DNA from: a virus | Lineage: Duplodnaviria > Heunggongvirae > Uroviricota > Caudoviricetes | IMG/VR virus record: IMGVR_UViG_3300010348_000547 | Location: 64,566-128,565 of that record | Length of the DNA: 64,000 nt | Direction: 5' to 3' (one strand) | Notes under the pieces: model-generated | The model's database searches: none | What the model saw: only the letters and a program-made list of their open reading frames with translations | Told to the model about the DNA's origin: nothing | In this document: piece after piece, positions 5,109 through 56,333 of the stretch | Numbering within the stretch: the stretch's first letter is position 1 | How the letters are laid out: each line of letters begins with the position of its first letter | Program-made: the position numbers and the translations under genes

Positions 5109-6153
5109 ATTTCATACATGGCCATCCATCCTCATCCACAACTTCTGTTGGGGTTTCTACTACCGGTTCTTCAGCTTGGTGGTTCTGTTCCACTTCAGCC
5201 ATTGTCACCGGATACTTTTGAATTGCTTCTCTACCGATTTCCTCGATGATATCCGTCTTCTCCTGAACTTCCTCAGCATTATTTTGCTCAACCGCATGCC
5301 CAATACATGGTGCTACGGCTTCTTTCATTTCTGCAGATTGCTCTGCTTCCTTGATAGCATCGATAATGTTTAGCTGGTTAGGATTATCTGCGATAATGTT
5401 TTCCGGCTTAGACTCCTCAATATGTAATACAGGATTACCTACATTAAAGTCTTTGCAGATTAGATAGTGAATCATTCTTTGCTGGTCCATCCAGGTACGC
5501 GGATGTGATTTCTGAAGAGCAAAGATGATTGCATTATACATTTCCCACAAGCTATCCGTGATACCTGAGTATTCGAAACTTGGCTTTCTGAATTCCGTCT
5601 TCACAATCCCTAATTGCTCACCAGTAACAAGCTCATTCATATAATATGCACGGCCCATAAATTCTGCACGCAACTGCTCAGGTGCCAATATGTTCTTCAT
5701 TATCTCTTTGTCCATGATTAGCTGCTTAAAATACTCTTCAGCATTGTTAATCTGCTCCTCTATCTGGTCAAACACTTCCTGGTCTGCTGTTCCTGTATGC
5801 TTTCTTCCGAACGTAGCCATGTTTCCGCCAATCACTGTTGCCAATGATGCATGCACATAACCTCCGATAGAACACTTAAAGCGCATGCTTTTGTCGTATG
5901 AATTACTCCACGCGAACATCATTCCCAAATCTGGGTCATCTCCGTAGTTCAGGTGATATATTCCCTGCGCTACCTGAGCTCCCTCATTGCATCGATACAG
6001 CTCACGCTGAATCTCCAATCCTTTACTAGCAAGGACTTCACGGACTTTATCAATAATTGCTCCGTGCGATATCACAGTGTACGTATCAGTTGCCTCTGGA
6101 AGTGAAGCTTTGATTAAATACTCGTGTGTAGTTGTATTTGCTCTTTTACTCAT
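5038..6153 (-). CDS. DUF932-like phage/plasmid protein with a C-terminal zinc ribbon
   Basis: 371 aa. The N-terminal region resembles the DUF932 (TIGR03299) family, and the C-terminus has CMKCG...CGNC. Confidence 0.45.
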   Translation of the reverse strand: MSKRANTTTHEYLIKASLPEATDTYTVISHGAIIDKVREVLASKGLEIQRELYRCNEGAQVAQGIYHLNYGDDPDLGMMFAWSNSYDKSMRFKCSIGGYVHASLATVIGGNMATFGRKHTGTADQEVFDQIEEQINNAEEYFKQLIMDKEIMKNILAPEQLRAEFMGRAYYMNELVTGEQLGIVKTEFRKPSFEYSGITDSLWEMYNAIIFALQKSHPRTWMDQQRMIHYLICKDFNVGNPVLHIEESKPENIIADNPNQLNIIDAIKEAEQSAEMKEAVAPCIGHAVEQNNAEEVQEKTDIIEEIGREAIQKYPVTMAEVEQNHQAEEPVVETPTEVVDEDGWPCMKCGTMQPSTAIFYDGQLCGNCYEH

Positions 6154-14109: not shown

Positions 14110-15315
14110 TTAGTTTAACTTTATTTGTGGGCCTATTAATGCTTCATTTATTTTAGACTGACTGCTTAGTACCCATAGCATTCGTCCTCTAGCTGGAGTC
14201 GGTGCTGAACATTCTCCATCAGTGAAATACATTAAACAAGTGTACTTATGTACATTCTCGTTATAATAATCAATCACCGGTTGGAAATCAGTCCCACCTC
14301 GTCCTTTAATCTGGATGTCCTTCTTAATGTTAAAAGGAGAGATATCACTGATAGCAGTATCACACTGTAAAACAGTTATCTCAGTTCCAGTCTTGTGTAT
14401 GTGATATAACTCATTCATACACTCTCGTAGTTCAGAAGAACTAACAGAGGCTGACGTATCGATTGCAAACAAGATGTGACGTCTCGGTTTTATTTTCAAA
14501 CCTGGATTCTCCTCATAGCGTTTGTTATACTTACGTCTTGTCTTTTTCGTATAGATTTTGGTTGATCCTCCTGCAAACCTTCTCAAGTATCCACGCCAGT
14601 CAAACTTAGGAGGCTCAACTTCAGCTAAACGCTTAAGTATCTCCGTAAATTCACCTGGAATAGTTCCACGAGATTTCTCAACTTGGTCAGCTACCTCTTT
14701 CAGAATATTTTCTGTATGAGTTCTAATCAATTTTTGAGTTGCTTCTGGAAGACCTTCCATAGCTTCCCAGCCTGAATGGTCTGGTAAATCTATAGTCTTT
14801 TGTCCCTTTCCTGTACCGATTGTTACTTGACATTGCCCAGCTGCATTAGCTGCCATCATTGCTTCAAGAGTTGGAGATGAACCATTTTTCTTAGCTTGTA
14901 TAAGCTTTTCATAATAGTACATTGTCCCCTTCTTTTCTTCAAGTTGTAGTTCAGGAAAACTAGACGGTAAAATTGGGTTGGGTGGTAAGTCATCAGTATC
15001 AATATACTGATTAATCTCACAATCCATGGCGTAGTTTGCAATTTCCTGGTCCGCCAAATGATTAAAGTCAGTCAAATGGAAAAACCCGATATGAAGTAAC
15101 TCATGTTTTAACAAACCTCTATGAGATTTCTCAGTTAGAGTACTCCAAAATTGCTCGTTGATTAGTAAATGGTAGTTGATACCATTCAATCCAACGCATG
15201 CGGTGTGAACACTATCACTCCACTGTTTGTTCAGCATTATCAGGAACATCCCGTAAAAGGGTTCCCTCAGCATCAGATCTTTCGAGGCTTTCGCCAATTG
15301 GTCTACTTTGCTCAT
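14110..15315 (-). CDS. VWA-domain protein with an N-terminal HExxH metallopeptidase-like domain (DUF2201-like)
   Basis: HELLHIGFFH motif in the N-terminal part. MIDAS motif LFAIDTSASVSS in the C-terminal half. Confidence 0.6.
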   Translation of the reverse strand: MSKVDQLAKASKDLMLREPFYGMFLIMLNKQWSDSVHTACVGLNGINYHLLINEQFWSTLTEKSHRGLLKHELLHIGFFHLTDFNHLADQEIANYAMDCEINQYIDTDDLPPNPILPSSFPELQLEEKKGTMYYYEKLIQAKKNGSSPTLEAMMAANAAGQCQVTIGTGKGQKTIDLPDHSGWEAMEGLPEATQKLIRTHTENILKEVADQVEKSRGTIPGEFTEILKRLAEVEPPKFDWRGYLRRFAGGSTKIYTKKTRRKYNKRYEENPGLKIKPRRHILFAIDTSASVSSSELRECMNELYHIHKTGTEITVLQCDTAISDISPFNIKKDIQIKGRGGTDFQPVIDYYNENVHKYTCLMYFTDGECSAPTPARGRMLWVLSSQSKINEALIGPQIKLN

Positions 15316-40447: not shown

Positions 40448-41848
40448 TTAGTCAAATTTCACGCGAGCATATCGGTCTGTCATCACTGTGTCTAACATCA
40501 GTTGTTCAGGTCCGTAAACCTTACCCTTCAGAATAGACTTCAGTATTGATGGACTGAAACCGGATACCAATCCTACGCCTTGGTCTTGAACCTGTGCAGG
40601 AGAATTACCCAAACGACCGTTCACATTCCAGAAGATAATCTCAGGCATTACATAACCAGATTGGTTATACTTTGCACGGATTACATCCAAGTTTGTAGAG
40701 CGATTGTCTCTAGTTGCTGTATTAAACTCCATATCAGAGATAATTAACAACTTAGTAGGCATTTCTTCAGAGGGAATATTCTCTCTGATTGCACTGTTCA
40801 GGATTAGGTCAAAGGAAGCCTGCAGATTAGTGGTCATTCCCCACGCTGCTGAACTCAACTGACGCATCCTTTGAGTCAATGACCCTTTCAGGTATTGCAT
40901 CTCAGGATTTGAGCTGAATGTCAGGAACGCATCCTTGAATATACCTTCGTTTCTCTCAGAGATATAAATCCCAAGAGCAACGGATACATCCATAGGTAAC
41001 CCACCGTTATCATTCATAGAGCCAGACACATCACACATCGGTAAGATGCGTTCAGTACTGCCTTCCATGTAATTAGGTAGGTTATTCCACTGAGCTTCGA
41101 TTGCGCTTGCATTTTGACCACTCTTAACTGCTTGATACAATTGATGAGGGAACAAAACAGAGGCATTAATCTTGGCTTCTCCTGAATGAACTGCATCGAT
41201 ATATGCTTTCATGCGAGCTTCATCATGCTTGAAAAATGCCGTACGGTATCTATTCATAGCAATCGAAGGTACATGAGCATAATTAATGCCACCCCATTCA
41301 CGTCTGCACATAAGCGTCTCCACTACTACAGTCTTTTTCACTAAGTATTGACGGAACTCTTTTGGAGTTACTTTCATATACTTGTGCATGGCTACAAACC
41401 ATGGACCTTTGCGTGGGAACCACTTGGCTAAAAGACCAGCGTTCTCCGATTCCTCTAATGTTGTTTTCAACCAATTAAGGTTGTTATCATTAGGTTTCTC
41501 GATAACGAACACGTCTTTCCAGTATCCGAACTCTGGCACAAGAATCATCAGCTGATCAAAGACTTCCGGATAGTTAGTACCAATATGGCTCATAACAATT
41601 TGGAAGAATCTTCTCTCACCTGCACCTCCTCGTGCGTCGCGAGCCCAAAACAATATCTTCACAGCAACTAATGAGTCTTGAGCGAATGCTCTCTCAAAGG
41701 CTGTCACGATATCTTTTGGTTGCATGTTGCGAGATGCTCCTGCTAAGAAGAACAAATCTACACATGAATTTAACGAAGTCGAGTGCGTAACTGCTCCGTT
41801 TGCTGTCACGCTATTATAGCTGCGTGTTGCGTTTACTAATCTACTCAT
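40448..41848 (-). CDS. VWA-domain protein, candidate TROVE/Ro60-like (DUF2828-type)
   Basis: 466 aa. The C-terminal half has MIDAS elements (MCDVSGSMN, a Thr in TNLQASFD, LLIISDMEFN). The N-terminal half of about 260 aa is alpha-rich. An ORF-free ncRNA island with tRNA-like RNAs lies immediately upstream. Confidence 0.45.
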   Translation of the reverse strand: MSRLVNATRSYNSVTANGAVTHSTSLNSCVDLFFLAGASRNMQPKDIVTAFERAFAQDSLVAVKILFWARDARGGAGERRFFQIVMSHIGTNYPEVFDQLMILVPEFGYWKDVFVIEKPNDNNLNWLKTTLEESENAGLLAKWFPRKGPWFVAMHKYMKVTPKEFRQYLVKKTVVVETLMCRREWGGINYAHVPSIAMNRYRTAFFKHDEARMKAYIDAVHSGEAKINASVLFPHQLYQAVKSGQNASAIEAQWNNLPNYMEGSTERILPMCDVSGSMNDNGGLPMDVSVALGIYISERNEGIFKDAFLTFSSNPEMQYLKGSLTQRMRQLSSAAWGMTTNLQASFDLILNSAIRENIPSEEMPTKLLIISDMEFNTATRDNRSTNLDVIRAKYNQSGYVMPEIIFWNVNGRLGNSPAQVQDQGVGLVSGFSPSILKSILKGKVYGPEQLMLDTVMTDRYARVKFD

Positions 41849-41895
41849 TTGGCTTAGGTTTTTTAGTTAGTTAATAATTGATTAATGGTGATGTA

Positions 41896-42121
41896 CCCCT
41901 CTGCACTCAGTTATGCATGTTGTTTACTTCATTTCTGAAGGATGATTCGTTAGATGCTTTCTAGGCTCCTATACAATTGTAAGCAAATAAAAGTCCGTAA
42001 GATTTCTCTTGGGAACAGTAACAACAAACGTTAATCCATCATTGACTAATCTTGCTTGGTTCCTCGCGTGTTAGTCTACATAACTGCTCACCCTTGGGAA
42101 GTGAGTTATGGTGCATTAATA
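41896..42121. repeat. structured repeat element, copy 1 (conserved 16-nt 5' arm and 39-nt 3' arm around a 170-nt variable stem-loop)
   Basis: CCCTCTGCACTCAGTT...AACTGCTCACCCTTGGGAAGTGAGTTATGGTGCATTAAT. The internal stem CAGTTATG/CATAACTG covaries with copy 2. Confidence 0.5.
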
Positions 42122-42614
42122 TACAGGCGTGTTCAACATGTATAGTGAGACTTCATCTGTGTCTATACACTTCCCTCATTAAGGCCTTAGCCACCTGTAA
42201 TGTTATCTCAAGCACTTAGTTGTAGTAGTCAGACTGGGATTGATTACCCAGGCTCTGGCAGGGTACCACAACTACTGTCACACTACAACATTGTGCTATG
42301 AGAAAACTGTGTTGATTTTTAACAATGGACCAGGTTACTCCACCAATCATTACTAATTGGCTTCATAGATAAAGCATCATAGCTCACCTGAGTGTTTTAA
42401 TCCATCTAATCTTTAACAGTTATAGAGATAATAAATAAATGCAGGTCAACATCATCCCTGCTTGCCCCAGATATTGAAGACTAGATATGCTCTAATTGGC
42501 TGTTCTTTGGGGTTACCCTGATGGTTATTAACCTATTCCACTCAGCTGTGGGGTCAGATTGTTTAAATTAATAACTCGTGCTCTTTATACTCAGCAGGGA
42601 GAGATTTTGGATAT

Positions 42615-42718
42615 CCCTCTGCACTCAGTTGTAATAGTTGGTCTTAGGTCAATATCAATAGATATCCCATGTACATTACAACTGCTCACCCTTGGGAAGT
42701 GAGTTATGGTGCATTAAT
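42615..42718. repeat. structured repeat element, copy 2 (same arms, 49-nt variable stem-loop)
   Basis: Identical 5' and 3' arms. The internal stem CAGTTGTAAT/ATTACAACTG keeps base-pairing through compensatory changes. Confidence 0.5.
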
Positions 42719-42940
42719 TTTGGGAGAACCCACCACCTTTTCACGGGTGATGGGGCTCAGATGTACGACAGGATACGGTTACCACCACACGCTACTTTCG
42801 TAGGCAGGTTCTCCCGGGTTATTGAACTTATAGTTTATAGTTTATAAGTTGCTGATGTATCCTTTGACATCTAATGTTTGCAGAATGCTACTAAGCCAAG
42901 TTATCAAATTGGATTAATATGCTGAAGCATTCTTTGTTTG

Positions 42941-43061
42941 TGGGGGCAGCAGGATTCGAACCTGCGACACATTGTTTTTAGTTTGGTATGCTGACCCAAT
43001 CAACAGATTGGACTGCTTTCGCAGTTATAGACGATTGCTCTACCAGCTGAGCTACACCCCC
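42941..43061 (-). ncRNA. tRNA-like RNA A (acceptor, D-arm and T-arm intact; about 70-nt structured insertion replaces the anticodon region)
   Basis: Minus strand: GGGGGTG-TA-GCTCAGCTGGTAGAGC...GCAGGTTCGAATCCTGC-TGCCCCC-A. The insert holds a GNRA hairpin CTGCGAAAGCAG and the motifs TAACTGC and GCATACCAAAC. Confidence 0.55.
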
Positions 43062-43307
43062 GTTTGCTGTCTGTTCCAGCTGTCAACCCGTATTGTTCTT
43101 ATTGGATGGATGTTACCTCAATGGGCTCATTTCGATGCCAGTGTCCCACTTATTGCTCTGACAAAATCAGTTTTCGGGCCCGTTACTGTTCTTTCGAACT
43201 TAAGTATCCCTGATGCTGAAACATGGTGTGCAGAACTTTCTCTGTAGTCAACCACCCTTATGTAATTAAAAGTCACTAGTACTTCTCAGTCATAAGGCAG
43301 GATTTTG

Positions 43308-43423
43308 TAGGGAGGGCTGGACTCGAACCAGCGACCACGACGTTAACAGCGTAAGTTGGTATGCAGTTAGCAACCTTTGACAGGCTGCGTTTTACGTGCT
43401 CTAACCAGCTGAGCTACCTCCCT
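43308..43423 (-). ncRNA. tRNA-like RNA B (paralogue of A with a different, about 64-nt insertion)
   Basis: Minus strand: AGGGAGG-TA-GCTCAGCTGGTTAGAGC...GCTGGTTCGAGTCCAGC-CCTCCCT-A. It shares TAACTGC and GCATACCAAC with A. Confidence 0.55.
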
Positions 43424-43776
43424 AAAAATACGGACTCCAGCTTGATTCATTAAAAGTGAATTGCTTAAGTTGCTGTATGGAGTCCTTATTAGACAGATTC
43501 CCTTTTTGCTTTTTCCAATAAAAGTTTTTTAAGTTGCGGATGGAATCTTTGTTTAAGGTGGCTGAGAGTGTTGAGCTTTGTCTTGCGACTGACTCAACCT
43601 TTTGCTCTCAGCAATTTCTTAAAGAGTTCAGACTTGGTTACCTGGTAACTGTTGTCTCGGATCTCTCCGGCTACGTTCACTCGAATGGTGTCTACGCAGC
43701 TAAACTACATGCATTGTTCCTGACTTTCGTCAACGCTTTGAGCTTATAACACTCACAGTTGTTTTGCTCAGACCTT

Positions 43777-43792
43777 TTTTTGTATATTTGTC
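43777..43792 (+). promoter_or_regulatory. Bacteroidetes-type -7 promoter element (TTTTTTTGTATATTTG) driving a near-leaderless HNH gene
   Basis: TAnnTTTG consensus 4-5 nt before ATG 43795. The same 16-mer precedes the HNH gene at 47002. Confidence 0.45.
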
Positions 43793-43794
43793 TT

Positions 43795-44277
43795 ATGAAG
43801 ACTTGTACACAATGTGATGGTAAACATCACGCTAAAGGTTACTGTAAGATTCACTACAAGGAGTTTATTCTCGACAGTAAAAAGCTTAATCAACTATGCT
43901 CAATAGATGGTTGTAACAATAATGTTGGAAAGAACGGTTTTAACGGATTATGTTCTAAACATTATACCCGTGTAAGACGTAATGGAGATGCTTTAATTGC
44001 AGGTAAAAACCGACAGTTTTATTCACTCCAAGAGTTCTTTAACACTAATGATACAGATACAATTCTTGACACTGTATTTGAAAGCAGAGTACGCTGGGCG
44101 TTTGCCGTCAAACTTTATTATGGTGACAAGTGTTGTAAATGTGGATGGGCTGAAACATCTTGCGATGCTGATCATATCATCCCTTTTGAATCCGGTGGTC
44201 CTAACACAATAAGAAATGGACAAGTTTTATGTCCTAATCATCATGCTATTAAACACCGACCTTCTACATCATCTTGA
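43795..44277 (+). CDS. HNH endonuclease with N-terminal Cys-rich repeats
   Basis: C-terminal CDADHIIPFESGGPNTIRNGQVLCPNHHAIKH. The ORF track starts at 43759, but the internal ATG at 43795 is chosen because of the promoter position. Confidence 0.6.
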   Translation: MKTCTQCDGKHHAKGYCKIHYKEFILDSKKLNQLCSIDGCNNNVGKNGFNGLCSKHYTRVRRNGDALIAGKNRQFYSLQEFFNTNDTDTILDTVFESRVRWAFAVKLYYGDKCCKCGWAETSCDADHIIPFESGGPNTIRNGQVLCPNHHAIKHRPSTSS

Positions 44278-44390
44278 GTTTAACGTGGCTCAAACCACGG
44301 TGCAAATATACACATTAATATCAGAAGAACAAGAGCCGGTCTAACCATCACCACTGGTATAGCTGACCGACTCCGCTCTATATCTTGACA

Positions 44391-44534
44391 TCATATTCCG
44401 CCACAATAGGCGCACTCAATCCAAGCACCTGTACCTGGACCACCAACATATTCATTATGGCCGCAATAGCCACATTTGAATACGAGCCTTTTGGGTTTTA
44501 CTTTAGGCTTTGATTTATGTTGTTTCTTTTTCAT
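44391..44534 (-). CDS. small zinc-ribbon protein (47 aa; not in the ORF track because it is under 60 aa)
   Basis: MKKKQHKSKPKVKPKRLVFKCGYCGHNEYVGGPGTGAWIECAYCGG with two CxxC pairs. Confidence 0.3.
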   Translation of the reverse strand: MKKKQHKSKPKVKPKRLVFKCGYCGHNEYVGGPGTGAWIECAYCGGI

Positions 44535-44542
44535 CAAATTCA

Positions 44543-44582
44543 AAAGATGAGACCGCGCATTAAATAGCTAGGTCTCATCTTT
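44543..44582. terminator. 12-bp perfect hairpin (AAAGATGAGACC-N16-GGTCTCATCTTT), candidate terminator or processing site
   Basis: Long perfect stem between convergent transcription units, with flanking T-rich sequence on both strands. Confidence 0.4.
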
Positions 44583-44759
44583 AAGGTATTTTCAGCTCTC
44601 AGACACCGCCTGGGTAACCTTGGGTCTGAGCCAGAACTTCTGTTAACTAACGTTCATCTAGTTCTCGGCATCCTTTTCAGTCAACCCATTCCAGCGCTAG
44701 AGTAGGGTGCTCTTCTTGAAGAATGACTAACTGACTTCTTAAGCTCGTCTGCCCATATC

Positions 44760-45365
44760 TTATAGCTGGATGTTGAACACAGGAGCAAGAGCCAAATGAG
44801 GCTGTGTGGTATTCACTTCTTCTCCTGATTCATTTAGTTTTACTGCACATTCTGGGTATAATACAAACTCGGCCATGACATCAATGTTCCAATTCATTCC
44901 CATATACAACCAGGTTGAGTAATGCTGTTTCCAGTCACTACCATCTACAAATAATGAATCAAGTTCATCCATGTAGATTCTGGTTTCTCCTCTTTCAATT
45001 TCTACTTCAGTTATGATATATATCATACTCTTACCGAAATTGTATGTTGCTGGAGTATTGTCATCCACTGACATGTTGCATGTGTGACGAGCGAATGCAA
45101 GTATTTGTTCATGTTGACCTTTACCGATTCGATAATCGCAGGGTTCTGCATATGCAGCTTGCAACGAGGGTTTCATTTGTTGTAACTCCCCTAATACATG
45201 TTGCCCTGGTAAAACAAGCAATGCCTCACAAGAGAGGAGTAAAGACGGGTCATATTCACCACCGTTATGTTCAATGACTTGATGACCCATCTTTATTAAT
45301 TTTTGTTTTACCACATTGTACACTGAGAAATTAGCCTGATTACTTTTAGAGAGATATATTCTCAT
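44760..45365 (-). CDS. hypothetical protein (201 aa)
   Basis: ORF. Confidence 0.45.
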   Translation of the reverse strand: MRIYLSKSNQANFSVYNVVKQKLIKMGHQVIEHNGGEYDPSLLLSCEALLVLPGQHVLGELQQMKPSLQAAYAEPCDYRIGKGQHEQILAFARHTCNMSVDDNTPATYNFGKSMIYIITEVEIERGETRIYMDELDSLFVDGSDWKQHYSTWLYMGMNWNIDVMAEFVLYPECAVKLNESGEEVNTTQPHLALAPVFNIQL

Positions 45366-47001: not shown

Positions 47002-47355
47002 ATGAAACAAGGTAATCATTCTGACCGTGATCGTGAGTTATATCTTAAAAGCATACGCTTTAAGGGTTTAACTGCTGCTGAGAAAGCTCTTCTAAAGAAA
47101 GAGGAGTCAAAGTTTAGGGATATCAAACGAAAGTACAATCTTACTAAAGAGCAGTACTTAAAGATGATTGATAATCAGAACGGATTATGTCTGGGTTGTG
47201 GTAAAGCTCCAAAGAAACTCTGTATTGACCATTGTCATACCACAGGCAAAGTCAGAGGTATTTTATGTTCGGATTGTAATGTTGCTCTTGGGCTTCTTAA
47301 AGATGATCCAAATACTTTACGCAATCTAATGCATTACCTAATACGACATTCCTGA
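47002..47355 (+). CDS. Endonuclease VII-family (HNH-like) endonuclease
   Basis: CLGCGKAPKKLCIDHCHTTGKVRGILCSDCN is paralogous to the C-terminus of the 12033-12578 product. The same TTTTTTTGTATATTTG promoter sits just upstream. Confidence 0.6.
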   Translation: MKQGNHSDRDRELYLKSIRFKGLTAAEKALLKKEESKFRDIKRKYNLTKEQYLKMIDNQNGLCLGCGKAPKKLCIDHCHTTGKVRGILCSDCNVALGLLKDDPNTLRNLMHYLIRHS

Positions 47356-53644: not shown

Positions 53645-53716
53645 GGGGCTATAGCTCAGTTGGTAGAGCAGCGGACTGAAAATCCGTGGTCCCTGGTTCG
53701 ATTCCAGGTAGCCCCA
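53645..53716 (+). tRNA. tRNA-Phe (GAA)
   Basis: Cloverleaf GGGGCTA/TAGCCCC, D GCTC-AGTTGGTA-GAGC, anticodon loop CTGAAAA, T-loop TTCGATT. Confidence 0.8.
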
Positions 53717-53722
53717 CAATAT

Positions 53723-53805
53723 GCCGACACTGCAGAGTGGGAGATCTGCACCAGACTGTAAATCTGGCGTCATTGACTTTGGGGGTTCGAGTCCCTCTGG
53801 CGGCA
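53723..53805 (+). tRNA. tRNA-Tyr (GTA), class II
   Basis: Anticodon arm CCAGA-CTGTAAA-TCTGG, 13-nt variable arm, T-arm GGGGG-TTCGAGT-CCCTC, one A.G mismatch in the acceptor stem. Confidence 0.65.
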
Positions 53806-53811
53806 CAACAC

Positions 53812-53894
53812 GGAAGTGGTCTGAATGGACGAAGAGCTAGTCTTGAAAACTGGTGGCTGTAAAAGGTTTGGGGGTTCGATTCCCTTCGCTTCCG
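53812..53894 (+). tRNA. tRNA-Ser (TGA), class II
   Basis: Acceptor GGAAGTG/CGCTTCC-G, anticodon arm CTAGT-CTTGAAA-ACTGG, long variable arm. Confidence 0.7.
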
Positions 53895-53899
53895 CAAAT

Positions 53900-53972
53900 A
53901 CATCTCTAGCTCAACTGGTAGAGCAGTGGTCTCCAAAACCAAAGGTTGTAGGTTCGATTCCTGCGAGATGTG
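53900..53972 (+). tRNA. tRNA-Trp (CCA)
   Basis: ACATCTC/GAGATGT acceptor, anticodon loop CTCCAAA, canonical D and T arms. Confidence 0.8.
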
Positions 53973-53977
53973 CAAAT

Positions 53978-54050
53978 GGTACCGTGGATGAGTTGGTTTA
54001 GTCTCAGGTCTGCAAAACTTGCTACGTCAGTTCGAATCTGACCGGTACCT
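53978..54050 (+). tRNA. tRNA-Cys (GCA)
   Basis: Acceptor GGTACCG/CGGTACC, anticodon arm CAGGT-CTGCAAA-ACTTG, T-arm GTCAG-TTCGAAT-CTGAC, irregular D region. Confidence 0.6.
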
Positions 54051-54059
54051 CAAACATAC

Positions 54060-54146
54060 GGAAGATAGGCAGATATTGGTTTGTTGCACCGCACTGCTAA
54101 CGCGGCCCAGGTAAAACTGGTGAGGGTTCGAGCCCCTTGTCTTCCG
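54060..54146 (+). tRNA. tRNA-Ser (GCT), class II
   Basis: Acceptor GGAAGAT/GTCTTCC, anticodon loop CTGCTAA, variable hairpin CCAG-GTAAAA-CTGG. Confidence 0.7.
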
Positions 54147-54152
54147 CACTAT

Positions 54153-54234
54153 GCCTCTGTGGCGGAATTGGTAGACGCGTTGGTCTTAGGAACCAATGTC
54201 GAAAGGCGTGCAGGTTCGAGTCCTGTCAGAGGTA
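54153..54234 (+). tRNA. tRNA-Leu (TAG), class II
   Basis: Anticodon arm TTGGT-CTTAGGA-ACCAA, 13-nt variable arm, T-arm GCAGG-TTCGAGT-CCTGT. Confidence 0.75.
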
Positions 54235-54238
54235 CAAT

Positions 54239-54318
54239 GCTCCGGTGGTGAAACTGGTAGACGCGCAGGACTTAAAATCCTGTCCTTCGGGGTGCGGGTT
54301 CAAATCCCGCTCGGAGTA
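54239..54318 (+). tRNA. tRNA-Leu (TAA), class II
   Basis: Anticodon arm CAGGA-CTTAAAA-TCCTG, T-arm GCGGG-TTCAAAT-CCCGC. Confidence 0.75.
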
Positions 54319-54523
54319 CAAAAAAAAAATATTTTTGCAAAATGTTTGCAGGAATAAAAACTATGCTTATATTTGTAGCGCAAATGAAACATGTACAACA
54401 TATAAATATCCAGGTGGCGAAAGCCATGATTACGCGCAGAGGCGATGAGCCGTCATGCCCGGAGGGTTTTGTATATTGTCTTGCTTCACATAAATAAGAA
54501 GTCATAGAAATCAAAATACGCAA

Positions 54524-54560
54524 AAGCCTCTGGGAATCATCTCAGAGGCTTTTTTGTTTT
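54524..54560 (+). terminator. rho-independent terminator inside the tRNA array
   Basis: AGCCTCTG-N10-CAGAGGCT followed by TTTTTTGTTTT. It abuts the 5' end of tRNA-Pro. Confidence 0.6.
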
Positions 54561-54633
54561 CGAGATGTAGTTCAGTTGGTAGAACGCGTGCTTTGGGAGC
54601 ATGAGGTCGTCGGTTCGAGTCCGGCTATCTCGA
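54561..54633 (+). tRNA. tRNA-Pro (TGG)
   Basis: Acceptor CGAGATG/TATCTCG, anticodon loop TTTGGGA, T-arm GTCGG-TTCGAGT-CCGGC. Confidence 0.75.
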
Positions 54634-54643
54634 CTTAAATTAT

Positions 54644-54716
54644 GGGCCAGATGCCGACGGCAGGTCAACCCGCTTGCACCGGGATTGTATGGGTTCGATT
54701 CCCACTGTGTCCACAG
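54644..54716 (+). pseudogene. pseudo-tRNA or tRNA-like fragment with an Ala-type anticodon loop (CTTGCAC) and no acceptor stem
   Basis: Anticodon arm ACCCG-CTTGCAC-CGGGA and T-arm TGGG-TTCGATT-CCCA are present, but the flanks cannot pair as an acceptor stem. Confidence 0.35.
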
Positions 54717-54781
54717 AGCTGATTATCAGGTGCAACCTAACAGCGGATTCGCAACCCGTCTGGATAATCAGGTTACATTAA

Positions 54782-54857
54782 GCGCCAGTAGCTCAATTGG
54801 TAGAGCTCTAGCCTTCCAAGCTAGAGGTTGCGGGTTCGAGACCCGCCTGACGCTCCA
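54782..54857 (+). tRNA. tRNA-Gly (TCC), CCA encoded
   Basis: Anticodon arm CTAGC-CTTCCAA-GCTAG, T-arm GCGGG-TTCGAGA-CCCGC, 3' CTGACGC-T-CCA. Confidence 0.75.
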
Positions 54858-55015
54858 ACATCTGTGATTACAATAAGCAGATGGAAGGGAAGTAAAATGA
54901 AATTCAGCACGGGGTTAGTTCTGCGTGTTTGTAAGGAGTGGTTGGAGGCCACAGTCCCCGACTAACAGGGACAAAGTACTGAAAAAGCCTTATAACGAAT
55001 GGATTACTTCCCTAT
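54858..55015 (+). ncRNA. structured spacer RNA candidate between tRNA-Gly and tRNA-Asp
   Basis: Hairpin CATCTG/CAGATG at 54859-54883. A 9-bp long-range stem GGGAAGTAA (54887-95)/TTACTTCCC (55004-12) encloses internal hairpins such as GTCCC-N9-GGGAC. A 22-codon micro-ORF lies inside. Confidence 0.35.
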
Positions 55016-55022
55016 GATTTTT

Positions 55023-55101
55023 GGTCTGTTGGGGGAGTTCGGCCGTCCCTGCTGCACTGTCACTGCAGAGATCACGGGTTCAAATCCCGTACAGACCGCC
55101 A
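55023..55101 (+). tRNA. tRNA-Asp (GTC), CCA encoded
   Basis: Acceptor GGTCTGT/ACAGACC-G-CCA, anticodon arm CTGCA-CTGTCAC-TGCAG, T-arm ACGGG-TTCAAAT-CCCGT. Confidence 0.75.
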
Positions 55102-55180
55102 GGAAGCAAACATGGGTTCGATTCCCATCAACTGGTCTAGTGCCGGTTGTCGTCTAGGGGTCAGGACGGCTTCACGTTAT
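55102..55180 (+). other. permuted tRNA-like halves (a 3' half followed by a 5' half of a Glu-type tRNA-like sequence)
   Basis: Order: GAAGC (anticodon 3' strand), AAAC, T-arm ATGGG-TTCGATT-CCCAT, acceptor 3' AACTGGT, then acceptor 5' GCCGGTT, GT, D-arm CGTC-TAGGGGTCAG-GACG, anticodon 5' strand GCTTC. All four stems are complementary but circularly permuted. Confidence 0.4.
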
Positions 55181-55252
55181 TGCTTCTTAGCTCAGCGGTA
55201 GAGCAGCGCCCTGTTAAGGCGACGGTCCTAGGTTCAATCCCTAGAGGAGCAG
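55181..55252 (+). tRNA. tRNA-Asn (GTT)
   Basis: TGCTTCT-TA-GCTC-AGCGGTA-GAGC, anticodon loop CTGTTAA, T-arm CTAGG-TTCAATC-CCTAG, 3' AGGAGCA-G. Confidence 0.7.
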
Positions 55253-55259
55253 CAAACAT

Positions 55260-55334
55260 TGACACATGGCGCAGCCTGGTTAGCGCATCACACTGATAAT
55301 GTGAGGGTCCCAAGTTCAAATCTTGGTGTGTCAA
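55260..55334 (+). tRNA. tRNA-Ile (GAT)
   Basis: TGACACA/TGTGTCA, anticodon arm TCACA-CTGATAA-TGTGA, T-arm CCAAG-TTCAAAT-CTTGG. Confidence 0.75.
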
Positions 55335-55340
55335 CTTAAT

Positions 55341-55415
55341 ATCAGAATAGCTCAGCTGGTTCAGAGCAACACCCTTACAAGGTGAAGGCCGGGAGTTCGA
55401 ATCTCTCTTCTGATA
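55341..55415 (+). tRNA. tRNA-Val (TAC)
   Basis: ATCAGAA/TTCTGAT, anticodon loop CTTACAA, T-arm GGGAG-TTCGAAT-CTCTC. Confidence 0.7.
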
Positions 55416-55496
55416 CACAAAATATATTTAAACTTGTAATGTTTACACTAATAAGATATAGAAGAAGCAAGGCTAAGATAAAATCTTAGTCCAAAC

Positions 55497-55570
55497 TCCT
55501 CTATAGCTTAGCTGGCTAAAGCACCATACTTTTAATATGGGGACCGCGGGTTCGAATCCCGCTAGAGGAA
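55497..55570 (+). tRNA. tRNA-Lys (TTT)
   Basis: TCCTCTA/TAGAGGA, anticodon arm CCATA-CTTTTAA-TATGG, T-arm GCGGG-TTCGAAT-CCCGC. A hairpin CTAAGAT-AAA-ATCTTAG sits just upstream at 55471-55492. Confidence 0.75.
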
Positions 55571-55577
55571 CAAATCT

Positions 55578-55654
55578 CTCCCCATAGCTTAACTGCATAA
55601 AGCTTTTGCCTTCTAAGCAAACGATTACAAGTTGGAATCTTGTTGGGGAGACCA
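55578..55654 (+). tRNA. tRNA-Arg (TCT), CCA encoded
   Basis: CTCCCCA/TGGGGAG-A-CCA, anticodon arm TTTGC-CTTCTAA-GCAAA. Confidence 0.75.
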
Positions 55655-55655
55655 C

Positions 55656-55730
55656 GCACCTTTAGCTCAGTTCGGTCAGAGCAGCTCACTCATAATGAGA
55701 AGGTCGTTGGTTCAAGTCCAATAAGGTGCA
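55656..55730 (+). tRNA. tRNA-Met (CAT), elongator-type
   Basis: GCACCTT/AAGGTGC, anticodon loop CTCATAA, no 3xG-C initiator signature. Confidence 0.7.
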
Positions 55731-55740
55731 CAAAATATTT

Positions 55741-55814
55741 GGCGGGGTAGAGCAGTCGGCTAGCTCGTGAGACTCATAACCTCAAGGTCACTGGTTCGAA
55801 TCCAGTCCCCGCTA
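55741..55814 (+). tRNA. tRNA with CAT anticodon, second copy (Met, or Ile2 if lysidinylated; fMet unlikely)
   Basis: GGCGGGG/CCCCGCT, anticodon loop CTCATAA, T-arm ACTGG-TTCGAAT-CCAGT. Confidence 0.65.
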
Positions 55815-55879
55815 CTAGAGTGCTAATGACGCCTGACAAAGGAGGGGATATATAACGCAGGTCTCCCGACACTCAACTT

Positions 55880-55951
55880 GTTCCTGTCTTCTAGGGGTTA
55901 GGATATTGCCCTTTCACGGCAATGACACGGGTTCGAATCCCGTCAGGAATA
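55880..55951 (+). tRNA. tRNA-Glu (TTC)
   Basis: GTTCCTG/CAGGAAT, Glu-type D-arm TTC-TAGGGGTTAG-GAT, anticodon arm TTGCC-CTTTCAC-GGCAA. Confidence 0.7.
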
Positions 55952-55956
55952 CATAA

Positions 55957-56029
55957 GCCAAAGTAGCTCAGCTGGTAGAGCTCCTGATTTGTAATCAGAT
56001 GGTCGTAGGTTCGAACCCTATCTTTGGCT
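55957..56029 (+). tRNA. tRNA-Thr (TGT)
   Basis: GCCAAAG/CTTTGGC, anticodon loop TTTGTAA, canonical D-arm. Confidence 0.75.
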
Positions 56030-56031
56030 CT

Positions 56032-56106
56032 GTGTTAGTAGCATATTCGGTTAATGTATCAGATTGTGGATCTGAGGAACAGGGTTCGATTCCCGCTAAC
56101 ACCCCA
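56032..56106 (+). tRNA. tRNA-His (GTG), CCA encoded, weak T-stem
   Basis: GTGTTAG/CTAACAC-C-CCA, anticodon arm TCAGA-TTGTGGA-TCTGA. Only a 3-bp T-stem and no encoded G-1. Confidence 0.55.
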
Positions 56107-56109
56107 ATT

Positions 56110-56183
56110 GGTTTCGTAGCTCAACTGGATAGAGCGTTACACTACGGATGTAAAGGTTCGGGGTTCGACTCCCTGTGAGACCA
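56110..56183 (+). tRNA. tRNA-Arg (ACG)
   Basis: Anticodon arm TTACA-CTACGGA-TGTAA, T-arm CGGGG-TTCGACT-CCCTG. Confidence 0.7.
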
Positions 56184-56191
56184 CTTCTTAT

Positions 56192-56264
56192 TGTCCTGTA
56201 GATTAACTGGCAAATCGTCTGATTTTGGATCAGAAGACTCCTGGTTCGAACCCAGGCGGGACAA
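56192..56264 (+). tRNA. tRNA-Gln (TTG)
   Basis: U1:A72-type acceptor TGTCCTG/CGGGACA, D-arm GATT-AACTGGCA-AATC, anticodon arm TCTGA-TTTTGGA-TCAGA. Confidence 0.7.
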
Positions 56265-56333
56265 CTTTCTTTTACAAGTTCTTGCATATTTGAATTGTTT
56301 TCTGTATATTGATTAAAAGATATTGACAGCATC

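Follow-up and report, generated by a model that had tools for sequence, protein, structure and literature searches.

Hatchet, pistol, and hammerhead ribozymes (RF02678, RF02679, RF03152; 'RAGATH') are small structured RNAs of phage-like metagenomic DNA that lie between phage genes, on the strand of those genes, and their biological role in phages is, to our knowledge, still unknown. Structured RNA also recurs between the polycistronic genes of T7, tens of nucleotides before start codons, in the form of RNase III sites, which are simple hairpins with an internal loop. Flavivirus xrRNA is a three-way junction with a loop-to-3′-tail pseudoknot formed from the second hairpin, and it blocks a 5′-to-3′ exoribonuclease; we know of no established bacterial or phage xrRNA. 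The PeSLs of T4-type phages are composite promoter-terminator repeats that mediate modular shuffling (PMC2839356, PMC4122927). Y RNAs (YrlA/YrlB, Yrn1) are encoded beside Ro60 genes in bacteria and phages, and GNCGAAN0-1G has been proposed as the Rsr-binding motif (PMC4201824). It has been reported that self-cleaving ribozymes cluster together, and such clustering was the criterion that yielded the hatchet, pistol, and hammerhead classes (PMC6765202).

In this study, we analyzed a window of 64,000 nt (the whole stretch of phage DNA) and found in it two copies of an RNA family that is undescribed, being without an Rfam entry and without a counterpart in sequenced phage isolates. We interpret its observed fold, strand, distribution, position relative to genes, ribozyme neighbors, and insertion/deletion behavior as those of a leader RNA that acts in cis on processing or stability of the message and is also a recombining cassette. 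We give this reading a probability of about 40%; transcription, action in cis, and any cleavage are inferred.

The RNA consists of a closing helix P1 (5 bp), a hairpin P2 (7 bp with two conserved U-G pairs, and the 5-nt loop CCCAA), and a long helix P3; the P2 loop and the 3′ tail GAGGG form a 3-bp pseudoknot. The tip of P3 varies from ~10 to 300 nt across the family, the unit ranges from 58 to 350 nt, and the minimal members, such as L007:5734-5791 and L129:6365-6422, are compact at ~58 nt. The features of the locus are the following.

42615..42718, minus strand: copy 2, ~102 nt, with a short P3 tip; covariance-model match at 42615-42716 (97.4 bits, E 2.5e-24)
42709..42713, minus strand: P1 5′ strand of copy 2, UGCAC; its partner GUGCA is at 42620-42624
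42685..42703, minus strand: P2 hairpin of copy 2, CUCACUU-CCCAA-GGGUGAG, with the loop at 42692-42696
42626..42684, minus strand: P3 of copy 2, CAGUUGUAAU (42675-42684) with AUUACAACUG (42626-42635); variable tip at 42636-42674
42615..42619, minus strand: 3′ tail of copy 2, GAGGG; the pseudoknot is formed by GGG at 42615-42617 and loop CCC at 42694-42696
41896..42118, minus strand: copy 1, ~223 nt, with a long P3 tip; covariance-model match at 41897-42118 (76.6 bits, E 1.2e-18)
42087..42115, minus strand: 5′ part of copy 1, with the P1 5′ strand at 42111-42115, junction CAUAA at 42106-42110, and the P2 hairpin at 42087-42105 (loop 42094-42098)
41908..42086, minus strand: P3 of copy 1, CAGUUAUG (42079-42086) with CAUAACUG (41908-41915); variable tip of 163 nt at 41916-42078
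41896..41906, minus strand: 3′ part of copy 1, with the P1 3′ strand GUGCA at 41902-41906, GA, and pseudoknot strand GGGG at 41896-41899, placed by fold and homology
42119..42614, minus strand: spacer between the copies, with a decayed third copy at ~42207-42300
41864..42721, minus strand: block present in the window and missing from relatives (BLAST limits 42721 to 41864), made up of copy 2, the spacer, and copy 1
40448..41848, minus strand: downstream gene for a Ro60-like protein (TROVE plus vWA fold; DUF2828+DUF7788), outside the element and given as context

The earlier note had described a duplicated element with shared exact arms of 16 and 39 nt, and the duplication is real. The 39-nt arm AACTGCTCACCCTTGGGAAGTGAGTTATGGTGCATTAAT has two exact matches in the window, at 42082-42120 and 42680-42718, and none arose by chance in 100 shuffles even with 3 mismatches permitted. 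The 16-nt arm CCCTCTGCACTCAGTT is exact at 41897-41912 and 42615-42630, against a chance expectation of 0.05 matches. This 16-nt arm begins at 41897 and had been placed one base off, at 41896. The inner stems, CAGTTATG/CATAACTG in one copy and CAGTTGTAAT/ATTACAACTG in the other, have the sequences given earlier, differ in their letters, and are paired in both. The TGCAC/GTGCA helix and the CTCAC/GTGAG hairpin are likewise present, and the minimum free energy (MFE) structure of each copy is the proposed three-way junction. That description had the junction fold right but read the plus strand, although the RNA is on the minus strand, and it missed the pseudoknot.

Covariation was observed in all four helices across 96 distinct homologues. 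The 25 pairs of these helices were paired in 96.7% of cells, and double changes occurred at 22 of them: in 5 of 5 pairs of P1 (97.8% paired), 5 of 7 of P2 (99.1% paired), and 9 of 10 of P3. Double-change cells numbered 220 against 34.5 in shuffles, a level reached in none of 500 shuffles, and sliding the helix register made pairing collapse to 28-55%. P2 stem variants include CCUGAUU/GGUCAGG and CCUGUUU/GGACAGG. In the pseudoknot, loop CACAA occurs with tail GAGUG, loop CCAAA with GAUGG, and loop UCCAA with GAGGA. When the tail GAGUGG alone was used for searching, the loop was CACAA in 3 of 3 elements, and the tail GAUGGG alone led to loop CCAAA in 13 of 14, so that the matching loop change predicted from the two tail variants was right in 16 of 17 new cases. 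These results bear out, and much strengthen, the claim that conserved arms enclose a variable central stem-loop whose compensatory changes show selection on structure rather than coding. Because the fold energy z-scores of the two window copies were only modest (-1.7 and -1.9), the case for a structure rests on the covariation among homologues and not on thermodynamics.

The functional sense of the RNA is that of the minus strand, which also carries the neighboring genes. It was identified from the G-U pairs, which on the opposite strand would become C-A mismatches, and from gene orientation. Roughly twelve unpaired positions show almost no variation, namely the 5′ UAA, the junction CA, the loop AA, the junction A, and the tail GA. 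In the CAUAA variant a frame from ATG to TAA (12 codons, ATG CAC CAT AAC TCA CTT CCC AAG GGT GAG CAG TTG TAA) exactly spans the conserved 5′ arm, and a micro-peptide could be read from it. We give this reading next to no credence and consider it effectively ruled out: the equally common CAUU junction variant moves the frame by one base, and substitutions track base-pairing and not codon positions. A role of the P3 tip as a guide or antisense sequence was also rejected; its complementarity to the window was at chance level, and the best match was 13 nt in sense orientation.

The family was found well beyond the window. At least 120 exact 19-mer matches were present among those listed in IMG/VR, and the fetched loci contained well over 100 distinct covariance-model matches, a total pooled from three partly overlapping locus sets. 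The carriers are over a hundred contigs of uncultured lake phages. Only 5 matches were obtained in 185,579 species genomes, all of them in metagenome bins, at least two from lakes. The element was absent from 50,697 sequenced phage records searched with megablast and blastn, where the sole matches were tRNA-like. A cmscan of 41800-44800 against Rfam 15 matched neither copy, at the gathering threshold or at E up to 10; an overlap with GmglnB1_5p_UTR (plus strand, 17.9 bits) was attributed to chance. The arm sequences were not found in the full-text literature, and the literature on DUF2828, RAGATH, and new ribozyme classes held no description of the motif. The family is large, phage-exclusive, and exceptionally well backed by covariation.

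The element is intergenic, usually just upstream of genes, and clusters of 2-3 copies on one strand are common. The downstream gene was co-oriented with it in 85 of 90 cases and the upstream gene in 74 of 90, although these figures rest on crude ORF calls. In 31 of 94 cases the next ORF has its ATG at a distance of 19-49 nt past the element, with a peak at 30-36 nt, and in the window 47 nt separate the end of copy 1 from the ATG of the Ro60-like gene. The neighboring genes are mutually unrelated: the largest cluster among 94 downstream ORFs had 4 members and most were singletons. A riboswitch or gene-specific regulator would call for a single functional class, and none was found among these 94 ORFs. 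A promoter was rejected as an explanation because there is no conserved upstream motif (no upstream information content beyond position -6) and a sigma-70-type promoter scan gave only shuffle-level matches. A terminator-like hairpin with a T-run lies directly upstream in only ~16-19 of 95 cases.

For a leader RNA acting in cis, we propose the following mechanism. The minus-strand transcript would carry an independently folding RNA module, in which P1 closes the three-way junction, the P2 loop CCCAA clamps the fold by pairing with the tail GGG, and the tip of P3 accepts any insert. The module lies where gene cassettes have their 5′ border, in what may be early or replication-side transcripts of an uncultured freshwater phage clade. 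It would serve as RNA punctuation in cis, by which the 5′ end of the downstream message is defined or protected, either through self-cutting or through cutting or binding by a nuclease or another protein. The niche is the one that hatchet, pistol, and hammerhead ribozymes occupy in sister loci. The module may in addition provide a recombination break point through which element-bearing cassettes are gained, lost, and swapped. Transcript coverage starting at UAAUGCAC would favor processing or a leader. A small RNA, among the functions suggested by the earlier note, is compatible with these results.

Protection of the message can be compared with the flavivirus type of xrRNA. Both have a three-way junction, a hairpin loop paired with the strand 3′ of the closing helix, and one helix of free length. 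However, the pseudoknotted hairpin of the element is the first branch and not the second, and no pseudoknot from the 5′ end to the junction was found. By analogy, 5′-to-3′ protection would be useful to an element upstream of a message; exoribonuclease resistance is without assay data. The element also resembles the T7 RNase III sites as a repeated structured RNA between genes, a short distance before start codons, but its fold is a pseudoknotted junction, and it has not been linked to any nuclease.

The sequences of P1 and of the P3 base are conserved far beyond the needs of pairing, which, judged from sequence, could reflect specific recognition by a protein. P1, the first two pairs of P3, and the junction are almost invariant across divergent phages, even where their Ro60-like proteins share only 53-76% identity. 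The element might therefore be bound by a protein or enzyme complex, of the phage or of the host, that recognizes these bases. It could then serve as a translational operator, act on RNA polymerase in antitermination as HK022 put does, or carry a processing signal of the RNase III/E type like the T7 R sites. Such a site would fit the indifference to the identity of the downstream gene, the co-orientation with that gene, and the preferred distance of 30-50 nt from the ATG. In low-scoring relatives the P2 loop and the pseudoknot are missing and P1 is extended instead, while P1 and the P3 base are kept; such relatives are easier to reconcile with a scaffold or a site of protein binding than with a catalytic core of fixed form. 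However, no candidate partner protein co-occurred with the element in the fetched loci, and nothing connects it with downstream terminators. We consider a binding site doubtful, though well conceivable; it overlaps with the cis-acting leader, and the two cannot be separated by sequence alone.

Known ribozymes occur in the same loci. Among the 48 loci scanned, 5 have a hatchet (L044, L039, and L050) or a pistol ribozyme (L013 and L096) within ~1.1 kb upstream of the element, on the same strand and 0.4-1.1 kb away, and in L027 a hammerhead core abuts the element. The neighborhood criterion for self-cleaving ribozymes is met by the element, although some motifs obtained by the same criterion are reported not to have self-cleaved on testing. 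The association in 5 of 48 loci may merely mirror the shared ancestry of the RNA-rich regions of these phages.

These neighbors raise the question of a new self-cleaving class, a sharper form of the cis-acting leader reading, in which the pseudoknotted junction would provide the catalysis and cut polycistronic phage transcripts at a fixed site; cleavage is inferred. The element shares neighborhood and strand with hatchet, pistol, and hammerhead ribozymes, and like them it is scattered among small unrelated ORFs, clusters, and has a variable peripheral helix (compare P4 of HDV or the stems of hammerhead) and a pseudoknot or junction core. The compact minimal forms and the nearly invariant unpaired nucleotides would also suit a ribozyme. 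On the other hand, the models of hammerhead, HDV, twister, twister-sister, pistol, hatchet, hairpin, and glmS gave no match on the element even at E up to 10. Manual threading of its helices onto the HDV and pistol topologies failed, as the helix order differs: in the element P1 comes first, P2 with its loop bound to the 3′ tail comes next, and P3 is last. Members without the pseudoknot and the conserved loop exist, and the helix sequences are more conserved than catalysis usually demands. We consider a catalytic core unlikely. Correspondingly, it is improbable, without being negligible, that this pseudoknotted three-way junction of ~58 nt is an unrecognized small self-cleaving ribozyme class punctuating early transcripts of uncultured freshwater phages. 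If the element does cleave, it would be one more ribozyme class; if it does not, a non-catalytic RNA in the ribozyme niche would be a clue to what that niche needs, such as processing, 5′-end protection, or protein recruitment.

The gene downstream of copy 1 raises a further possibility, that the element acts in trans as a Y-RNA-like partner of the adjacent Ro60-like protein; such binding is hypothetical. The protein has a Ro60 fold, and its top Foldseek matches were the TROVE domain, phage phiLo Ro60, Ro autoantigen, and Rsr (E 1e-7 to 3e-5). Searches of the PDB by sequence, with the protein and with its profile, gave no match, and only the fold search succeeded. Like Y RNAs, the element is non-coding, falls in a range of 80-230 nt with paired 5′ and 3′ ends, and lies upstream of a Ro60-fold gene here and in the 62-76% identity clade, in which 1-3 copies were located ~0.2-2.6 kb upstream (mostly 0.2-0.8 kb) in 14 of the 36 Ro60-like loci. 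Most copies, however, do not lie near such a gene: it is within reach in just 9 of 125 element loci and not in the other ~116. The Rsr/Ro60-binding motif (GNCGAAN0-1G or GGUCCGA-like) is absent from the element consensus UAAUGCACCAUAACUCACUUCCCAAGGGUGAGCAGUUGUAAU...AUUACAACUGAGUGCAGAGGG, and no tRNA-clan match on the element indicated a tRNA-like domain with D and T arms. The two tRNA-like RNAs neighboring the element (47-49 bits), together with RNA X, are better Y-RNA candidates. In the closest relatives (L200, L202, L001, and L014) the Ro60-like gene, the tRNA-like RNAs, and RNA X are retained but no element stands at the site. In near-identical strains the element is dispensable. We give a Y-RNA-like partner little credence. 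Presence and absence between near-identical strains offer a natural experiment on the effect of the module on the Ro60-like gene.

The whole block of two copies and spacer is missing in loci L200, L201, L202, and L203 (three close relatives). The flanks of L200 and L201 are 95-98% identical to the window, and in L202 flank identity falls across the site from 98% to 82%. Inspection by eye places the true edges of the block at ~42720, where copy 2 has its 5′ end, and at ~41895, where copy 1 has its 3′ end, and no target-site duplication was visible at them. The spacer contains no convincing ORF and has a homologue in none of the fetched loci, and a 22-mer taken from it was not present in IMG/VR, so its donor was not found. 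The nearly identical arms, between copies and between phages, are the reason why the element may serve as a recombination break point. A recombination site, as suggested by the earlier note, is thus supported in part: the indel boundaries between close relatives coincide with the ends of the element, but the predicted deletion between copies was not seen. Recombination between the copies should remove the intervening spacer and leave one copy, whereas the relatives are without both.

These boundaries could also point to a DNA-level feature without any RNA role. It might be a site of recombination, a repeat of the iteron or origin type, a cruciform, or the termini of a miniature transposon. The perfect inverted repeat of P3 and the frequent HNH endonuclease genes nearby would agree with this. 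However, wobble pairs are conserved on one strand only, the pseudoknot covaries, and the bias in gene-relative orientation would not be expected for a DNA site. The inverted repeat is internal, with conserved non-palindromic sequence outside it, and is not terminal as in a MITE. The core consensus of integron attC sites, RYYYAAC...GTTRRRY, was unmatched on inspection. Iterons, another earlier suggestion, are unsupported, as copies are dispersed in many contexts and not arrayed at one origin. A feature of DNA alone is very improbable.

As a recombining leader cassette, the element resembles the PeSLs, with which it shares a conserved intergenic repeat at cassette boundaries, indels that end at the repeat, and shifts in flank identity. 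It satisfies the PeSL-type criterion of a repeated intergenic motif at indel boundaries between close relatives, but it is not built from a terminator stem-loop joined to an early promoter. The element has no conserved promoter and is a junction of 58-350 nt with a covarying pseudoknot, which means that the tertiary structure of the RNA is under selection. The family also shows that the borders between mosaic segments of phage genomes can be marked by structured RNAs as well as by promoter-terminator repeats. When more empty sites were sought among the fetched loci, none was obtained, and only orthologous sites with different family members were found; at one of these, a 110-nt member was swapped for a 58-nt member with different letters in P2 and the pseudoknot.

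The window carries two minus-strand copies of a folded RNA element, copy 1 at 41896-42118 and copy 2 at 42615-42718. The 39-nt arm was matched exactly in the window only twice, at 42082-42120 and 42680-42718, and the 16-nt arm was matched exactly at 41897-41912 and 42615-42630; the chance expectations from shuffles were 0.00 and 0.05, respectively. An earlier note had described a duplicated structured element whose inner stems differ in sequence and remain paired in both copies. This pairing was confirmed, and every feature it described was found where it had been placed. Read 5' to 3' on the minus strand, the element consists of UAA, P1 (UGCAC), a junction (CAUAA or CAUU), the P2 hairpin (CUCACUU-CCCAA-GGGUGAG), P3 (CAGUUGUAAU...variable...AUUACAACUG), A, P1' (GUGCA), GA and GGG(G). 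The three-way junction was the energy-minimum fold in both window copies and in all 45 homologues inspected. Within the window, a covariance model derived from 42 members matched nothing but copy 2 (97.4 bits) and copy 1 (76.6 bits). The 496-nt spacer between them contained no convincing ORF, no homologue of it was found in the fetched loci, and a 22-mer taken from it was absent from IMG/VR. A decayed third copy was observed in the spacer at approximately 42207-42300 (-), in which a 3'-arm-like sequence, ACTACAACTAAGTGCTTGAG, agrees with the consensus at 17/20 positions and a P3-like stem is present, with the P2 hairpin absent.

The genes neighbouring the element all lie on the minus strand, and 41849-44760 is nearly devoid of ORFs. 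In minus-strand order, the features are:

201-aa gene, first upstream of the element
Small zinc-ribbon ORF, after the 201-aa gene
43759-44277, plus strand, antisense HNH ORF, after the zinc-ribbon ORF
43423-43308 and 43061-42941, minus strand, two tRNA-like RNAs (Rfam tRNA, 47-49 bits)
42935-42719, minus strand, structured RNA X, between the tRNA-like RNAs and copy 2
42718-42615, minus strand, element copy 2
496-nt spacer, between copy 2 and copy 1
42118-41896, minus strand, element copy 1
41848-40448, minus strand, 466-aa DUF2828+DUF7788 protein, ATG 47 nt after copy 1

We investigated the family to which these copies belong. The 19-nt P2 hairpin alone had more than 120 exact matches among the IMG/VR matches listed, and the covariance model found 19 matches in 36 loci with relatives of the DUF2828 protein and 125 in 100 other loci. 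Element length ranged from about 58 to 355 nt, with the variation confined to the P3 tip. In an alignment of 96 distinct sequences (A2), the 25 pairs of the four helices were 96.7% paired, and 220 double-change cells were observed compared to 34.5 in shuffles; none of 500 shuffles reached the observed values. When the 3' partners were slid by 1-3 columns, pairing fell to 28-55%. P2, invariant in the first ascertainment, covaried freely in divergent members (CCUGAUU/GGUCAGG, CCUGUUU/GGACAGG, UCAGCUU/GGGCUGA and CCAACUU/GGGUUGG). U-G and G-U pairs recurred in the element, and two conserved U-G pairs close P2. Read from the plus strand, these pairs would become C-A mismatches, and the folded strand is therefore the minus strand.

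The P2 loop also pairs with the tail. In divergent copies, tail GAGUGG was accompanied by loop CACAA, and tail GAUGGG by loop CCAAA. IMG/VR was then scanned for these two tail variants only, and the predicted loop was present in 3/3 true elements with GAGUGG and in 13/14 elements with GAUGGG, the exception being locus L192. A third change, UCCAA with GAGGA, was found in L042. Double changes occurred in 3/3 pseudoknot pairs, which were 94.9% paired. The RNA fold is thus shown to be conserved and to include a pseudoknot that covaries. Such a covarying tertiary pairing is hard to explain except by RNA structure under selection. Flavivirus xrRNAs resemble the element only in having a junction and a loop-to-tail pseudoknot, but their branch order differs.

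No Rfam 15 family matched the element, even at E up to 10, and membership of an Rfam family was ruled out by the lack of a covariance-model match. The element was not found in 50,697 records of cultured phages, and a full-text search of the literature did not find the arm sequences. Among 185,579 species represented by one genome each, there were 5 matches, all on metagenome-bin contigs, and the record titles of two indicate lakes (ELA, Lanier). The element is restricted to phages; it is an RNA of uncultured phages, probably mainly of freshwater.

Its position relative to genes was examined using crude ORF calls. The downstream gene was on the element's strand in 85/90 cases and the upstream gene in 74/90, with 15 divergent junctions versus 5 convergent ones. 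The next ATG-ORF began 19-49 nt past the tail in 31/94 cases, the distances peaking at 30-36 nt, and the intervening leader was A/T-rich without an evident Shine-Dalgarno sequence. The element lies before genes, and the ORFs neighbouring it belong to no common family. Upstream, no conserved motif was found past UAA, and only a minority of elements were immediately preceded by a terminator-like hairpin and T-run. Groups of two or three copies on the same strand were frequent, some abutting (L051, 9205-9429 and 9431-9535), often with one small ORF behind each copy. We infer that the element may be transcribed together with the genes and act in cis on the RNA, as punctuation or as a leader that would set or protect the 5' end of the message downstream of it.

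Genes for Y RNAs are reported to lie typically next to Ro60 (PMC4201824), and a Y-RNA role therefore had to be weighed. The DUF2828 protein had no match to Pfam TROVE by sequence, and PDB sequence searches were likewise empty. Its AlphaFold model (pLDDT 79) had as top Foldseek matches 9kop (TROVE domain), 9l5y (Ro60 of Thermus phage phiLo), 1yvr/1yvp (Ro autoantigen) and 2nvo (Deinococcus Rsr); the alignments spanned about 500 columns, with E-values from 1e-7 to 3e-5. On this predicted structure, the 466-aa protein has the Ro60 fold (TROVE ring plus vWA). Homologues were found by tblastn in 696 phage records; most of 45 sampled were labelled 'hypothetical protein' or 'RNA-binding protein', and those of mycobacteriophages 'Ro-like RNA binding protein'. 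The evidence was against the element being a Y RNA: a Ro60-like gene was within reach in only 9/125 element loci, the proposed Rsr-binding motif was absent from the element, and the closest relatives kept the gene with no element at the same site.

Better Y-RNA candidates than the element are the two tRNA-like RNAs and RNA X, all conserved next to the Ro60-like gene. The former, neither of which was detected by ARAGORN, have intact acceptor, D and T arms, and 51-55 nt folding into small hairpins replace the anticodon arm. Upstream of the Ro60-like gene, both were conserved in L202, the RNA at 42941-43061 also in L200, and that at 43308-43423 also in L012; they are candidate YrlA-type Y RNAs. 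RNA X (about 210 nt) was conserved directly 5' of the gene in L001, L014, L027, L003, L200, L202 and L203, with helices GGAUGC/GCAUCC, GGAUAC/GUAUCC and GGGAGAACC/GGUUCUCCC and some compensatory changes. No Rfam family covers RNA X, which may serve the Ro60-like protein as leader or RNA partner.

Previous work showed that bacterial and phage self-cleaving ribozymes sit near one another, and proximity has been used to find new classes (PMC6765202). When 48 element-bearing loci (about 566 kb) were scanned with Rfam, three hatchet ribozymes (L044 191-325, L039 5635-5767, L050 46-208) and two pistol ribozymes (L013 5116-5184, L096 2731-2790) scored above the gathering thresholds. Each shared the element's strand and lay 0.4-1.1 kb 5' of a copy; their hosts are uncultured lake-phage contigs, in which the ribozymes lie on the gene strand amid small ORFs. 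A hammerhead core (CUGAUGAG...CGAAAC...GUC) starts 7 nt past the element tail in L027, scoring 35.5 bits against RAGATH-1-hammerhead, under the curated threshold; L001 contains another. The element is thus co-located with ribozymes, and it could be one itself. That reading is tempered by low-scoring relatives, which have a longer P1 in place of the pseudoknot, and by sequence conservation in the helices beyond what pairing alone needs. Sequence cannot decide between self-cutting, being cut and protein recruitment. With unusually strong evidence for the fold, this large, undescribed family of unknown function is best filed as a new one among orphan structured RNAs sharing phage ribozyme neighbourhoods.

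Other RNAs were observed in these contigs. A conserved non-coding segment, RNA Z (window 43599-43746 (-); L001 about 5480-5634; L027 5472-5557), was common to the window, L001, L014, L203, L057 and L103, and the hammerhead core precedes it in L001 and L027. A DUF805b RNA motif (RF02914, 37.3 bits) was located at L060 885-916, about 1.2 kb upstream of an element on the same strand, and phage-encoded tmRNA genes were present in element-bearing contigs, at L044 8424-8820, L084 887-1274 and L089 6973-7527.

Contigs of relatives from a database search (99%, 84% and 80% protein identity) were compared with the window. Both flanks of L200 and L201 aligned to it with 95-98% nucleotide identity, and 42721-41864 was skipped. 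L202 was 98% identical through RNA X, lacked the same block and resumed at 82%, and L203 lacked it likewise. Compared base by base, the empty sites run ...GGGUUCUCCC-AAAA-leader-ATG; in the window, a block from UUAAUGCAC (copy 2 start) to GCAGAGGGG (copy 1 end) is inserted at that point without target duplication. Because the empty sites lack exactly this block, copy 2, the spacer and copy 1 form a single discrete cassette, bounded on both sides by ends of the element itself. The earlier note had raised deletion of the spacer by recombination between copies; this would leave one copy, which relatives do not show. Past the block, the short leader CAUCACCAUUAAUCA is similar to the element 5' arm, AAUGCACCAUAACUCA, and we infer that this similarity could have guided deletion or insertion.

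At an orthologous site, L008 has a 110-nt element (5681-5791; loop CCCAA, tail GAGGG) and L007 a 58-nt minimal element (5734-5791; loop CACAA, tail GAGUGG). They differ in P2 and pseudoknot letters within flanks 84-88% identical, which looks like allelic exchange between family members. L203 has two copies at another intergenic position. These results indicate cassette-like gain and loss, in which the module moves or is exchanged. We infer that the conserved arms may be recombination break points, by analogy with the PeSL repeats of T4-type phages (PMC4122927). PeSL as defined has a promoter; the element has none, which rules it out as a PeSL.

In the window, a replication module of a tailed phage, with DNA polymerase, helicases and ligase, is followed by a tRNA array and structural genes. 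The array of 23 canonical tRNA genes (53645-56265 (+)) covers 19 amino acids, with Ala missing, and sits where genes switch from minus to plus strand. At 44391-44533 (-), just after a perfect 12-bp hairpin (44543-44582), an ORF of 47 aa encodes a lysine-rich, zinc-ribbon-like mini-protein with two CxxC pairs. The antisense HNH ORF within the non-coding RNA island encodes a 172-aa endonuclease. L202 has the same HNH ORF, whereas an unrelated HNH_3/NUMOD4 gene occupies the equivalent place in L203, which suggests that homing endonucleases have invaded repeatedly. Further HNH genes are present at 14110-15315 and 47002-47355.
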